From a virus (Duplodnaviria > Heunggongvirae > Uroviricota > Caudoviricetes), in the IMG/VR virus record IMGVR_UViG_2671180984_000014: a stretch of 64,000 nucleotides of DNA. One strand, written 5' to 3'. The notes under the pieces are model-generated. The model was given only the letters and a program-made list of their open reading frames with translations. It searched no databases and was not told where the DNA came from. This document shows, piece after piece, positions 44,911 through 47,566 of this stretch. A program made the translations under genes and the position numbers. The stretch's first letter is position 1. The number at the start of each line of letters is the position of its first letter.

Positions 44911-45066
44911 GTGTCATCCAAGGTTAATTATGAGTCGCTGGCATCGGTCATGCCGCGTAATGAACAGGAAACAGATGCTGTAGTGGACCCTGTAATCGCT
45001 GAAATGAATGCTCGCCTGGAGGCTGAATTTGCAGCTGAGAATGAACATACCACCCAGGGCGACTAG
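44911..45066 (+). CDS. small hypothetical protein (51 aa)
   Basis: GTG behind GGGAG SD; weak call. Confidence 0.25.
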   Translation: MSSKVNYESLASVMPRNEQETDAVVDPVIAEMNARLEAEFAAENEHTTQGD

Positions 45067-45670
45067 GACTGTTTTTTGTGTCGGTAGCGGTCCGTCACTC
45101 ACTCGTGAGGACTGTGCTGCTATAGAAAAAACTGGCTGTTCAATCATCGCGGTTAACAATTCCTGGCAGATGTTCGATGACATTTATGCCTTATACGCCG
45201 GTGATTTGTCATGGTGGAAGCAATACGGATCCACCATACCGGGAGGGAAATTCCGCAAAGTGACAGCCAACCTGGCGGCGGCGAAATCATTTTCGTTGGA
45301 GTACAGGCGATATTGTGGACCGGCGGAAGGGGTAAATAGCGGCGCGCAGGCTATCAGTCTGGCTGCTGAATCAGGGGCTGAAGTAGTTGTATTAGTCGGC
45401 TATGACTGTTCTCTGCAAAACGGCCTTCATTGGCATGGCGCGCACCCTCAAGCCCTACGGAATCCAACGCAGGTGTCTATTTCAAAATGGCAACAGCAGT
45501 TCCTGGATACCCGCAAAAAACACGCAGATTTACATATTTTGAATGCAAGTAGGAGCAGTGCAATTCAATGTTTCCCAAGAATAAATTTAGAGGCAGTGAT
45601 CGCGTTATTATCGTCGGCAGTGGCCCAAGCGCCGCAAACTTTGTTGCGCCGCGCGGAGTGCCGATTATAG
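45041..45670 (+). CDS. GSGPS-motif protein, paralog 1 (Rossmann-like)
   Basis: VFCVGSGPSL...IIAVNNSW; paralogous to 45568-46194. Confidence 0.4.
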   Translation: MNIPPRATRTVFCVGSGPSLTREDCAAIEKTGCSIIAVNNSWQMFDDIYALYAGDLSWWKQYGSTIPGGKFRKVTANLAAAKSFSLEYRRYCGPAEGVNSGAQAISLAAESGAEVVVLVGYDCSLQNGLHWHGAHPQALRNPTQVSISKWQQQFLDTRKKHADLHILNASRSSAIQCFPRINLEAVIALLSSAVAQAPQTLLRRAECRL

Positions 45671-46194
45671 CGGTCAATGGGGCCATCGACTGGCTGAACC
45701 GCGCTTCTTATTTTTTCACACTTGATCCATCGCCAGACAATATGCGGCGCGTTGGTCGTGGCCGCCGTCGCCGTGGTGTTTGTTATTGCATGGCACTACC
45801 CGATGTTAAAGAACGTGAAGTCAGAGACGGCGTTCTGTGCTTCCGTCGTGTGGCTGAACGTGGCATGGAGCCAAAAAATATGAATTCTCCCGAGTGGTGG
45901 GCGTGGCGCTGGTCCGCACATTTCGGACTTTGCGAAGATGAGAATGAAATTGCCAGCGGCAATAGTGCATATGGCGCTCTGAACCTGGCTTTCCATATCG
46001 GATTCAAACATGTCGCCCTGGTGGGCGTTGACGCTACACAAGAACCACGCGTTCACTCCGGCGGCACGCCAAAAAATCTAAGTCACCTGCCTTTGTTATT
46101 CCAGTCTGCGCGTGAACAGATTGACGTTGTTTCATGCGGGAAAATGGGAGGTATTCCGCAGATGACTCTTAAAGAATGGCTGAAGAATACATGA
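45568..46194 (+). CDS. GSGPS-motif protein, paralog 2
   Basis: [14 protein letters not shown]...IIAVNGA; overlaps paralog 1 by ~100 bp in another frame. Confidence 0.4.
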
Positions 46195-46868
46195 TGGCAC
46201 CCACAATTTATCACCGTATCGACGGTACCAAATACAGGAATGTCTGGGTTGTTGGTGATCTGCATGGTTGCTACACCAGACTGATGTCCGAACTCCATCG
46301 TGTGGATTTTGACCCGGCGCAGGATTTACTGATATCGGTCGGCGACCTTATCGATCGCGGTACTGAAAATGTCGAATGTCTGGAACTATTGCAGATGCCC
46401 TGGTTCAGGGCAGTGATGGGGAACCATGAGCGGCTGATGATTGATGCGTTAAGTCCAGATGGCAACGTGAATAACTGGCTAATGAATGGCGGACAATGGT
46501 TCTTCATGCTGGACACTGATCAGGAAATATTAGCCTGGGCGCTGGTGGAGCTGGTAAAGCGTCTGCCCTATATCATTGAGTTGAACACCGGGCAAGAAAC
46601 TATCGTTATAGCCCATGCCGACTATCCGGATAATGAATACCAATTCGGTAAGGAGGTGCCGCTTTTCAACGTTGTCTGGGCGCGCGAGCGTATCAGTGAT
46701 TCGATGGATGATATTGGTGGCGAAATTTCGGGCGCAGATCGTTTTATCTTTGGTCACACTCCGGTGAAAAGCCCGAAGACATTCTGGAATCAGCAGTATA
46801 TCGACACTGGTGCCGTATTTTGCGGAAACCTGACATTGATGAAAGTGAAAGGTGATGGTGCAGCATGA
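46176..46868 (+). CDS. ppp: Ser/Thr protein phosphatase, calcineurin-like
   Basis: GDLHG, GDLIDRG, GNHE metallophosphoesterase motifs. Confidence 0.85.
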
Positions 46869-47566
46869 AGATTGCTTTAGTTTTTCGCTCTGGTGGTGAC
46901 TATAACGCTTCCGATGTGCAGTGGCTGGTTAATCAACTGCCAAAAGGCTATGAAATTATTTGCCTGACAGACCTGAAGCGTTTACATGTACCTGGCGTCA
47001 AAGTTGTCCCATTGATCAACCAGTGGCAAAAGTGCCGTGGCTGGTGGGCGAAAATCGAGTTGTTCCGACCGGATATAACAGATGATCTGTTCTATCTGGA
47101 TTTGGACACAGTTATTGCCGGTGATATACGCCCAATCCTTGAGAATCCACCAACCAGCTTCACCATGCTTAGGGATTTTTACCATCCACAATATCGTGGT
47201 AGCGGTGCCCTGTGGATACCAAATAGTGTAAAAGCGCATATCTGGAGTTCATTCTGGCAAGATCCGGAAGGTTGGATTTCTCGTTGTGTCACTACTGAGT
47301 GCTGGGGTGATCAGGGGTTCTTACGGAAGGTTATGGGCGATGATACACCAGCATTTCAGGATCTGTATCCAGGATGGTTTGTAAGTTACAAGGCCGATGT
47401 TGTGGAACCTGGTTCAAAATATGCGAGCGCGCGTTACTCCAGGGGGAATGGGGCATTACCAAAGGACTGCCGAATAATCTTTTTCCACGGCAAACCGCGA
47501 CCTCGCGAAGTGTCAGAGGATTGGCTTCCCCTTATTAGCTCGTTTTTTGAGCGAGAATCAGAATAA
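46865..47566 (+). CDS. hypothetical protein with DxD-like motif (233 aa)
   Basis: [12 protein letters not shown]; possible nucleotide-sugar transferase fold. Confidence 0.35.

Follow-up and report, generated by a model that had tools for sequence, protein, structure and literature searches.

In phage P1, pmgO, pmgP and pmgQ make up a conserved and mobile cassette carried by phages, whose products are soluble enzymes that have the folds and motifs of glycosyltransferases. It occurs in thousands of phages with Gram-negative hosts, mostly adjoining the capsid gene. We tentatively propose that this cassette glycosylates virion proteins in the cytoplasm from host nucleotide sugars, possibly CMP-Kdo, a reading to which we give a little less than an even chance. 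The genes pmgO, pmgP, ppp and pmgQ were already catalogued in P1, where their function is uncharacterised, and literature searches turned up no publication on what pmgO, pmgP or pmgQ does. The new elements are the joint travel of the three genes without the phosphatase gene ppp across many diderm phyla, the fusions, the size of the family, the placement next to capsid or lysis genes, and the link to Dbn in EP_H11.

The window, i.e., the whole stretch of 64,000 nucleotides that was analysed, is phage P1 (98.9-99.3% identity); the region with the four genes is 98.9% identical to P1 and 99.3% identical to RCS47. The original prediction of four genes holds: four ORFs on the plus strand, at 45008-47566, match the annotated P1 genes pmgO (45008..45670, 220 aa), pmgP (45568..46194, 208 aa), ppp (46176..46868, 230 aa) and pmgQ (46865..47566, 233 aa). 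The start first proposed, 45041, is in the right frame but is an internal ATG, the first ORF beginning at 45008. The four-gene pattern reported earlier far exceeds chance. Consecutive ORFs overlap by 103 nt (pmgO/pmgP), 19 nt (pmgP/ppp) and 4 nt (ppp/pmgQ), and the four genes are a translationally coupled segment of one P1 operon. Two upstream genes, known from their ORFs and the P1 annotation, share this transcription unit: pmgL (44018-44263, plus strand) and the VRR-NUC-like pmgM (44266-44844, plus strand), which scores 21.2 bits against Pfam VRR_NUC, under the cut-off of 23.8. The start of pmgO is overlapped by pmgN (44911..45066, plus strand, 51 aa), which has a GTG start and a GGGAG Shine-Dalgarno sequence and matches phrog_2350, a PHROG of unknown function.

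According to the P1 annotation, the cassette is under both C1 (early) control and a late promoter. The late promoter, LPpmgL, lies at 43911..43929 on the plus strand (AF234172 78495-78513, offset 34584), and the annotated C1 repressor operator O26/Op82, with two mismatches to the C1 consensus, lies at 43944..43960 on the minus strand. The predicted promoter PpmgN (44812-44838) precedes a further annotated operator, Oppp/Op83 (44851..44867, minus strand, mapped from P1 79435-79451), which has four mismatches and hence falls outside our operator scan, where up to three were allowed. Operator OpmgRa (47568..47584, plus strand), present in both the annotation and the scan, starts the next unit (pmgR, pmgS). 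In P1, the cassette adjoins tail and baseplate genes, not the capsid gene; this distance from the capsid gene and the partly C1-early control count against an action on virions. The four genes are dispensable for P1 plaques, as established by CRISPRi (PMC10695390) and by knockouts (PMC9024508), and this dispensability fits a decoration role.

With regard to PmgO and PmgP, the two genes sharing an N-terminal GSGPS motif were expected to be paralogous, and this is confirmed. The motif reads VGSGPSLTREDCAAIEKTGCSIIAVNNS in the first ORF (pmgO), with a corresponding 24-residue stretch in the second (pmgP). The pairwise similarity is weak (BLASTP E 0.003 over 36 residues), and the family profiles align across both proteins with an hhalign probability of 97.7% (E 1.7e-12, 161 aligned columns), computed without the fusion protein P0092, which confounds the comparison. 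The DUF115-like profiles suggested as a check also proved pertinent, as profile comparison identifies PmgO and PmgP as true paralogs, and as nucleotide-binding enzymes, within the MptE-like/DUF115 superfamily. The P1 proteins themselves score 23.6 (PmgO) and 21.1 bits (PmgP) against PF01973, both below the gathering score of 34.6, which counts against the proposed function; their relatives P0092 (44.6 bits), L152 (35.9 bits) and P0259 (72.5 bits) exceed it, and 32 of the 33 PmgO-family members match the MptE-like model at E <= 1. PmgO also matches phrog_4603 (E 5e-74). Residues N50, D66, S111, D133, H141 and H143 are invariant in PmgO, and H173 is a conserved histidine in PmgP; a counterpart of the catalytic His188 of Cst-II may be among the histidines H141, H143 and H173. 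Within the pair, pmgP is the more conserved member. None of PmgO, PmgP and PmgQ had a match in the NCBIfam search, and no signal peptide was read by eye in their N-termini.

The AF2 model of PmgP (pLDDT 94.5) has the archaeal MptE kinase 8sd5 as its best Foldseek match (E 1.6e-3, probability 0.99), followed by Cst-II and Cst-I (E 0.04-0.1), with TM-scores of only 0.4-0.5. PmgP is predicted from this model to adopt the fold common to MptE and Cst-II, and PmgO probably shares it through its hhalign alignment to PmgP. The likeness to the Campylobacter enzymes Cst-I and Cst-II (GT42) extends to the N-terminal GxGPS...N and the (T/N)SG...LxGxD motifs, of which GxGPS and (T/N)SG...GxD are retained in the PmgO alignment, but it is weak throughout: the PmgO profile reaches Cst-II at E 0.11-0.5 over two short motif stretches, and the PmgP profile has no match among PDB sequences. 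Sequence comparison thus gives no significant similarity to these GT42 enzymes (E about 0.1 for PmgO, none for PmgP). That a kinase, and not a glycosyltransferase, heads the fold matches of PmgP, at TM-scores of only 0.4-0.5, counts against a glycosyltransferase role. PmgO and PmgP could instead be MptE-like (pyro)phosphokinases, paired with Ppp for the phosphorylation and dephosphorylation of a sugar, a cofactor or a protein. We consider this very unlikely. The match to an archaeal HPPK MptE, the kinase name borne by the sole Pfam model matched and the position of the phosphatase gene between pmgP and pmgQ in P1 all speak for it, whereas the retention of the Cst-II motifs and the fusion of DUF115 domains to GT8-like and sugar O-methyltransferase domains, i.e., glycan-building company, speak against it, as does the distribution of Ppp.

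Ppp had been described as a calcineurin-like phosphatase, and rightly so. It scores 59.3 bits against Pfam Metallophos (cut-off 21.5), aligns end to end with the lambda phosphatase 1G5B (E 1.5e-94) and contains all metallophosphoesterase motifs (GDLHG, GDLIDRG and GNHE). Its scores against the NCBIfam PrpA and PrpB equivalogs, 272 and 240 bits, are below the respective cut-offs of 326 and 332, and it is therefore not orthologous to these enzymes of the host. Sequence comparison identifies it as an ortholog of the lambda Ser/Thr phosphatase (NinI), which sits in the nin region, whereas ppp sits inside a glycosyltransferase cassette. The inclusion of the phosphatase in a functional unit did not stand. 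Among 26 loci, P1 and the phages closest to it (loci L086-L088) are the only ones with ppp inside the cassette, and it is missing from the other cassettes examined, including that of the P1-like phage JK004, where there is no ppp between pmgP and pmgQ. Conversely, phage D6 has ppp and no pmgP or pmgQ match, nor is pmgO among the matches listed. The ppp gene is a lineage-specific insertion in a variable slot between pmgP and pmgQ, probably acquired independently, and would not be part of the mechanism.

PmgO is a putative CMP-ulosonic-acid transferase, with Kdo as a possible substrate. The glycosyltransferases of its superfamily (Maf, WaaZ and Cst-II-like enzymes) use CMP-activated ulosonic acids as donors. 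The PHROG and RefSeq label 'alpha-2,3-sialyltransferase' derives from the likeness to Cst-I and Cst-II. It probably names the wrong donor, because E. coli K-12 makes no CMP-sialic acid (CMP-Neu5Ac). E. coli WaaZ, the KdoIII enzyme of the LPS core, matches the MptE-like Pfam model as well, and P0092 has a faint precomputed WaaZ_KDO_III match. As direct comparison with E. coli WaaZ is weak (hhalign probability of 12-16%), the WaaZ link rests on the common Pfam model and on the faint match of P0092.

With regard to PmgQ, profiles of GT families had been suggested as a check. The protein with YLDLDTVI, encoded by the fourth ORF, is indeed a glycosyltransferase of the GT-A type, and both its profile and its fold are GT8-like. 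Its profile matches the Skp1 alpha-galactosyltransferase 6mw5 (E 1.7e-6) and glycogenin (E 3.5e-3) in the PDB, and its AF2 model (pLDDT 94.1, pTM 0.91) retrieves GT8 enzymes or GT8-type domains as all of the best 50 PDB matches listed by Foldseek (E 2e-9 to 8e-7). The DxD-containing D79-L80-D81-T82 is invariant in 28 homologs and lines up with the DxD motifs of both 6mw5 and glycogenin. The conserved G148-D149-Q150 and H208-G209-x-P211-R212-P213 align with 'GDQGLLN' and 'HFLGQTKPW' of glycogenin, respectively. PmgQ shares the GT-A fold, DxD, GDQG and His-x-x-G-x-x-(K/R)-P with GT8 enzymes such as glycogenin, Skp1 AgtA, LgtC and GlyE, but is shorter (233 aa), and its identity to the solved structures is about 14-17%. 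No Pfam family was matched at E <= 0.1, the threshold of PF01501 not being reached, and PmgQ is best called GT8-like, as a separate family that comprises 4,066 protein clusters. Known GT8 enzymes with this architecture catalyse Mn2+/DxD-dependent, retaining hexose transfer from a UDP-sugar, and by analogy PmgQ is predicted to be a retaining UDP-sugar hexosyltransferase.

A link between the region and the GT1-like gene coupled to ban had also been suspected. This gene, dbn (38075..39073, plus strand, 332 aa), lies directly after ban and encodes a GT4-like protein that scores 25.0 bits against Pfam Glycos_transf_1, under the cut-off of 26.4. The link is supported by EP_H11, where a Dbn homolog (48% identity, E 3e-107) lies inside the cassette, between the PmgP and PmgQ homologs. 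Other Dbn homologs are found near the cassette (loci L003 and L101), those of Serratia and Buttiauxella being about 3 kb away. The cassette may thus include Dbn as a fourth glycosyltransferase, present in some phages only.

The distribution of the cassette was established by one-genome-per-species sampling, which superseded an IMG/VR scan with the PmgP alignment that had returned P1-like contigs only. This gave 24 loci in Proteobacteria, Bacteroidota and Gemmatimonadota, most of which contain PmgO, PmgP and PmgQ homologs together; the three travel without ppp, and all hosts found are diderms. In a scan seeded with distant PmgQ relatives, which yielded 80 divergent viral contigs, a DUF115 gene is near the PmgQ gene in 52 of the 80, mostly directly upstream and on the same strand. 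Natural fusions link PmgO to PmgP (P0092), PmgQ to DUF115 in both domain orders, a sugar O-methyltransferase to PmgQ, and a methyltransferase and a GT9-like domain to PmgQ. In some podovirus-like contigs, the DUF115 slot is taken by a 201-aa protein that is not detectably DUF115.

In several phages, the cassette neighbours structural genes. In phage D3 and in prophages of Ochrobactrum, Pseudomonas and Zhongshania, it comes directly after the gene for the major capsid protein, which supports a link to virion genes. Where the upstream neighbours in the 80 viral contigs have an annotated function, this is most often that of a major head protein (two separate families, 13 and 9 members), and proteins for head-tail adaptors, head closure and tail tubes are encoded downstream. 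Other phages carry the cassette in a late operon, with Rz (lysis cassette) on one side and terminase on the other. In EP_H11, the cassette lies amid small unannotated genes with no recognisable structural block, which counts against an action on virions. Moreover, morons classically insert behind the capsid gene and behind Rz, so that the shared position may mark sites where insertion is tolerated and not a functional tie. The PmgO homolog of PAJU2 is labelled 'structural protein'.

The same enzyme families could serve a different acceptor. The cassette might remodel the LPS core or an envelope glycolipid by adding Kdo and a hexose (a heptose in relatives) to lipid A-core at the cytoplasmic face, so that the core is altered or truncated during lytic growth, e.g., blocking adsorption of progeny or competitors. 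The LPS core pathway draws on exactly these enzyme families (WaaZ, GT8 WaaO/WaaJ, GT9 and GT4), and the hosts are diderms only; an LPS acceptor fits both facts equally well. Three enzyme families are common to the cassette and the core enzymes WaaZ, WaaO/WaaJ (GT8 enzymes, whose genes adjoin waaZ in K-12) and WaaC/F/Q/U (GT9), and the GT9 likeness is seen in domains fused to PmgQ relatives and, in appearance, in D3 orf12. The core donors (CMP-Kdo, UDP-Glc/Gal and ADP-heptose) are diderm-specific or universal, which matches the host range of the cassette, and P1 itself binds the LPS core. We nevertheless judge this explanation unlikely on the whole. Known LPS-conversion genes of phages are usually near att/int and expressed in lysogens, whereas C1 represses the cassette in the P1 lysogen and elsewhere it belongs to late or structural operons. 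The LPS already present in the outer membrane cannot be exchanged for core synthesised shortly before the end of infection. The weakness of the direct WaaZ comparison is a further argument against it, and chromosomal copies of the cassette accompany adhesin genes rather than waa; at loci with annotated neighbours, no waa genes were found beside the cassette.

These chromosomal copies, in Pseudescherichia and Serratia, are interleaved and co-directional with genes for Big_1 and inverse-autotransporter adhesins, a setting that resembles that of dedicated adhesin glycosyltransferases. Together with the lack of a recognisable structural block around the EP_H11 cassette, they favour an acceptor outside the virion: the phage would take over the host or counter its defences by glycosylating a host or phage protein, cytoplasmic or secreted, for instance an adhesin, flagellin, a defence factor or a translation factor. 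Maf proteins with DUF115 and many GT8 enzymes are protein glycosyltransferases. This would leave unexplained why phages of unrelated types share the position directly behind the capsid gene, and a PADLOC search with all four proteins gave no match at a significant E-value. In addition, 24 viable P1 knockouts had no plaquing or antirestriction phenotype (PMC9024508). A non-virion protein acceptor is, on balance, improbable.

The original prediction of a nucleotide-sugar or modification activity is borne out as far as the glycosyltransferase families indicate, but not in counting the phosphatase as a member, nor probably in allowing for DNA modification. In the latter case, the glycosyltransferases would act on modified bases of P1 DNA; phage glycosyltransferases for 5-hydroxymethylated bases are reported to exist (bioRxiv 10.1101/2023.12.21.572611). 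The cassette neighbourhoods examined are late or structural rather than replicative and contain no hydroxymethylase, TET-type or base-modifying partner, for which reasons DNA or nucleotide hypermodification was rejected as extremely unlikely. No GT8 or DUF115 enzyme is known to act on DNA, nor is P1 DNA known to carry sugars.

For virion glycosylation, we infer the activities, the glycan and the acceptor. In P1, the genes would be switched on once C1 repression is lifted, and again from LPpmgL. The enzymes would act in turn in the cytoplasm and build a short glycan from nucleotide sugars supplied by the host, with CMP-Kdo as the sole CMP-ulosonic donor in E. coli K-12; in relatives, the glycan would also be O-methylated. 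Ppp, a separately acquired lambda-type phosphatase, would remain outside this mechanism. The likeliest acceptor would be a virion structural protein made simultaneously, the capsid first. The resulting sugar-decorated particles, whose decoration would be unneeded for laboratory growth, could differ in surface properties, i.e., in adsorption to non-hosts, stability and recognition. In a bolder and improbable version, PmgO and PmgP would be minimal enzymes that transfer Kdo from CMP-Kdo to proteins. With PmgQ (and Dbn), they would equip capsid or tail proteins with a glycan that contains Kdo and resembles the LPS core, as the first virion O-glycosylation system of Gram-negative phages. Such a system might then be present in P1, D3-type phages and thousands of uncultured phages, whose particles might be cloaked in host-like sugar. 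No paper on virion glycosylation in Gram-negative phages was found in literature searches, and the P1 virion proteomics paper neither reported nor looked for glycosylation (PMC9024508).

Precedents exist for both the acceptor and the donor. Freeman and colleagues reportedly described, in 2023, glycans on capsid and tail proteins of the mycobacteriophages Che8, Corndog and Myrna. The operons concerned resemble the cassette in encoding cytoplasmic phage glycosyltransferases, often with methyltransferases, and in being dispensable for plaques. They adjoin the capsid gene, as do relatives of the P1 cassette, whereas the P1 genes do not; their hosts are Actinobacteria instead of diderms, and glycosylation is demonstrated there, whereas we infer it for P1. 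The mycobacteriophage enzymes belong, to our knowledge, to families other than those of PmgO, PmgP and PmgQ, and none of the best 50 BFVD fold matches of PmgQ is a mycobacteriophage protein. Maf flagellin nonulosonic-acid glycosyltransferases are soluble members of the PmgO/PmgP superfamily, and the structural protein on which they act is O-glycosylated before it is assembled. Maf proteins are far larger, multi-domain enzymes with acceptor-binding domains, whereas PmgO and PmgP are minimal domains of about 200 residues without significant direct sequence match to Maf. In E. coli, Maf enzymes can use CMP-Kdo and transfer Kdo onto Ser/Thr of proteins (bioRxiv 10.1101/2020.06.03.131540).

P1, a heavily used genetics phage, carries four glycosyltransferase-like genes without a known product, and in many unrelated phages the cassette, whose families use LPS-core sugar donors, adjoins the capsid gene. 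If it glycosylates virions, particle glycosylation would extend from mycobacteriophages to Gram-negative phages, which matters for how the immune system recognises therapeutic phages, for the stability of particles and for their adsorption, and very small protein-glycosylating enzymes would become available for engineering. Neither 'alpha-2,3-sialyltransferase' nor 'norphogenetic protein' is a reliable database name, and the position of the phosphatase gene should not be taken to mean that it belongs to the system. The C-termini of three capsid proteins adjoining the cassette (n=3) are short and rich in Ser, Gly and Thr.

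With regard to pmgO and pmgP, the paralogy that had been proposed from a common GSGPS...AVN motif is borne out. The motif is present in both proteins, and a comparison of the profiles of 32 PmgO relatives and 38 PmgP relatives, from which the fusion protein described below was excluded as a confounder, gave a probability of 97.7% (E 1.7e-12, 161 columns); the pairwise similarity of the two proteins is marginal (E 0.003). The same polar positions are retained in the two families: the SGPS and AVN motifs, an Asp following the third strand, NS(G/A), and G(Y/V)D. PmgO and PmgP therefore both look like active enzymes. 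The suggested search for DUF115-like domains showed that both proteins match the Pfam family MptE-like (formerly DUF115) below threshold, while relatives pass the threshold and 32 of the 33 PmgO relatives match the model. Fold comparison of the predicted PmgP structure (pLDDT 94.5) puts the archaeal kinase MptE first (E 1.6e-3), ahead of the Campylobacter sialyltransferases Cst-II and Cst-I. A kinase rather than a transferase chemistry for PmgO and PmgP is one of the weaker rival readings. The PmgO profile contacts Cst-II at two nucleotide-binding motifs, which is not significant, and it is this resemblance that explains the PHROG/RefSeq label "alpha-2,3-sialyltransferase", an over-specific name transfer.

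The protein with the DxD motif, PmgQ, has no match in Pfam or NCBIfam. A profile built from 28 relatives nevertheless finds GT8 structures, including the Skp1 alpha-galactosyltransferase (E 1.7e-6) and glycogenin (E 3.5e-3), and these align with it at the DxD, in the GDQG segment and at the C-terminal His motif. The AlphaFold2 model is confident (pLDDT 94.1), and the best 50 PDB fold matches listed are all GT8 enzymes or GT8-type domains. The profile search and the structure prediction both point to a GT8-like PmgQ, and this predicted assignment at the fold level is new.

In the window, pmgO (45008-45670), pmgP (45568-46194), ppp (46176-46868) and pmgQ (46865-47566), all annotated P1 genes, lie in a region of approximately 4 kb that is 98.9% identical to phage P1 and 99.3% identical to RCS47. 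The original prediction had started the cluster at 45041, where the second in-frame ATG of pmgO lies, and ended it at 47566. Overlaps of 103 nt (pmgO/pmgP), 19 nt (pmgP/ppp) and 4 nt (ppp/pmgQ) lead us to read the four genes as a single unit with coupled translation. They are preceded on the 5' side by pmgL, pmgM and pmgN, and the P1 annotation places the late promoter LPpmgL upstream of pmgO. Two annotated operators of the C1 repressor, O26 (43944-43960) and one after pmgQ (47568-47584), were recovered by a scan with the consensus ATTGCTCTAATAAATTT; the annotated Oppp (44851-44867) has four mismatches and is missed at the limit of three. Within this limit, 11 sites were found in the window, among them those at 12587, 14259, 29182, 33481, 43944, 47568 and 49709, compared with 0.31 expected by chance. 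Two other products of this "morphogenetic" block look, from their sequences, like nucleic-acid enzymes instead: Pap (49203-49709), named "acid phosphatase", scores 44.1 bits (cut-off 27.6) against the HAD phosphatase domain of polynucleotide kinase-phosphatase, and PmgM (44266-44844) is VRR-NUC nuclease-like, at 21.2 bits slightly under the cut-off.

A sample of one genome per species yielded 24 loci, distributed over Enterobacterales, other Gamma-, Beta- and Alphaproteobacteria, Bacteroidota and Gemmatimonadota, and in most of them relatives of PmgO, PmgP and PmgQ are grouped. The same trio was found in further loci reached through homologous proteins. The phosphatase was correctly called, Ppp being the ortholog of the lambda phosphatase (E 1.5e-94 to 1G5B, with a Metallophos match), but its inclusion in a functional unit with the other three is not supported: among the loci compared, Ppp occurs only in the three that are P1-like. 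Phage phiNP has the trio and lacks Ppp, the P1-like phage JK004 has contiguous PmgP and PmgQ, and phage D6 has ppp, with neither pmgP nor pmgQ found on searching. Since these gene contents separate Ppp from the trio, we regard Ppp as an independent insertion; its exclusion from the cassette is new.

The slot between PmgP and PmgQ is variable, being occupied by a SAM methyltransferase in three loci, by a small GT-A protein in others and by a GT4-like protein in EP_H11. The latter is 48% identical to P1 Dbn, encoded directly after ban, and in Serratia and Buttiauxella, too, Dbn homologs are encoded at a distance of approximately 3 kb from the cassette. This synteny supports the suspected link to the gene coupled to ban, which had been described as GT1-like. 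Two clear homologs are unannotated in GenBank, that of PmgO in phiNP (L194, 6450-7091; HMM E 1e-77) and that of PmgP in EP_H11 (L195, 6995-7633; HMM E 4.5e-79).

Members of the cassette are also found fused. One protein (P0092) is a PmgO-PmgP fusion, and the fusion partners of PmgQ relatives are DUF115 domains, on either side, TylF/CmcI-type sugar O-methyltransferases, or a methyltransferase together with a GT9-like (heptosyltransferase-like, sub-threshold) domain. Large phage proteins of 650-800 aa in which one chain carries a SAM methyltransferase, a GT9-like domain and a PmgQ-like domain (L144, 6-2327; L151, 6276-8633; L163; L168; P0265) look like single-polypeptide glycan assembly lines. 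In Xanthomonas/Stenotrophomonas jumbo phages (XacN1, L197, 7324-9946), two DUF115 genes accompany a TylF-type O-methyltransferase-PmgQ fusion, and are directly followed by genes for three hypothetical proteins of more than 1,000 aa each. When all 1.84 billion representatives were searched with an HMM, 4,066 clusters were assigned to the PmgQ family at E <= 1e-10, and the family is present in at least 568 viral stretches of IMG/VR. Of the 80 viral contigs that diverge most, 52 carry a DUF115 gene close to that for PmgQ, mostly immediately upstream of it in the same orientation.

In HK97-like prophages of Ochrobactrum, Pseudomonas and Zhongshania, the cassette lies between the major capsid gene and the head-completion genes. 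In phage D3, the capsid gene orf6 is followed by the PmgO-like orf7 (L198, 5097-5555) and, farther along, by the GT9-like orf12 and a methyltransferase gene (6894-8289). By eye, D3 orf12 and ORF011 of PAJU2 (in the region L199, 3974-5917) have an N-terminal GT9-heptosyltransferase-like "GLGD" motif, and each is followed by a methyltransferase; the annotation of the PmgO homolog in PAJU2 reads "structural protein". Among the upstream neighbours in the 80 viral contigs, major head proteins are the commonest annotated function (two distinct families, with 13 and 9 members), followed by portal and protease; on the downstream side, the neighbours are proteins of head closure, head-tail adaptors and tail tubular proteins. 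Lambdoid phages and others have the cassette between Rz and terminase. On chromosomes, where no phage genes were seen around it, the trio is interspersed with genes for inverse-autotransporter and Big_1 adhesins in Pseudescherichia (L090-L094, about 5300-11300), and PmgO is co-directional with Big_1 genes in Serratia (L003, 2674-5115). These copies suggest a dedicated glycosylation of adhesins, Big_1 being intimin/invasin-like. The definition of the cassette with Dbn as a possible member, its fusions, its breadth and its synteny with capsid genes are new.

As the cassette is found with the capsid gene across unrelated types of phage, and with adhesin genes on chromosomes, we tentatively consider a protein to be the most likely acceptor and, in phages, a virion protein. 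A non-virion protein target and DNA modification are weaker alternatives. The main rival, remodelling of the LPS core, would account for enzyme families that exactly match those of the waa locus and for a diderm-only distribution: all hosts identified are diderms, and the phage records with relatives of PmgP (27), PmgQ (32) and PmgO (73) include no phage of a Gram-positive host. E. coli WaaZ, the enzyme associated with the third Kdo residue of this core, also matches the MptE-like model (E 6.9e-7), and the fused relative P0092 carries a faint precomputed WaaZ_KDO_III match; a direct comparison with WaaZ is weak. The late or structural location of the cassette, the repression of its genes by C1 in the lysogen and the link of chromosomal copies to adhesin genes argue against LPS remodelling.

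The enzymes would act sequentially in the cytoplasm, building a short glycan from host nucleotide sugars; none of the N-termini of PmgO, PmgP and PmgQ resembles a signal peptide when read by eye. PmgQ would use a UDP-sugar as the source of a hexose, and PmgO and PmgP a CMP-sugar as the source of an ulosonic acid; in K-12, this CMP-sugar could only be CMP-Kdo. Virion-glycosylation systems exist in mycobacteriophages, and a virion acceptor would make the cassette a variant of these with different enzyme families, possibly using Kdo. Maf enzymes, of the MptE-like superfamily, were reported to modify Ser/Thr residues of flagellin with Kdo in E. coli (bioRxiv 10.1101/2020.06.03.131540).

That the genes exist and are dispensable was already known, and literature searches returned no paper on the function of pmgO, pmgP or pmgQ. 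CRISPRi and knockout show pmgO, pmgP, ppp and pmgQ to be non-essential (PMC10695390). A knockout study found 24 of 29 pmg/upf deletions without plaquing or antirestriction defect and, of the Pmg proteins, detected PmgC and PmgG alone in virions (PMC9024508). That the genes can be dispensed with under laboratory conditions is consistent with a role in decoration. The product names are guesses. The gene name "pmg" stands for "putative morphogenetic function" and was given from position only, and in P7 the same genes are named hdmB, hdmC and hdmD ("head morphogenesis"). The RefSeq/NCBI product name of PmgP homologs in many genomes, "norphogenetic protein", is a propagated typo that originates from the P1 pmgM note "putative norphogenetic function".
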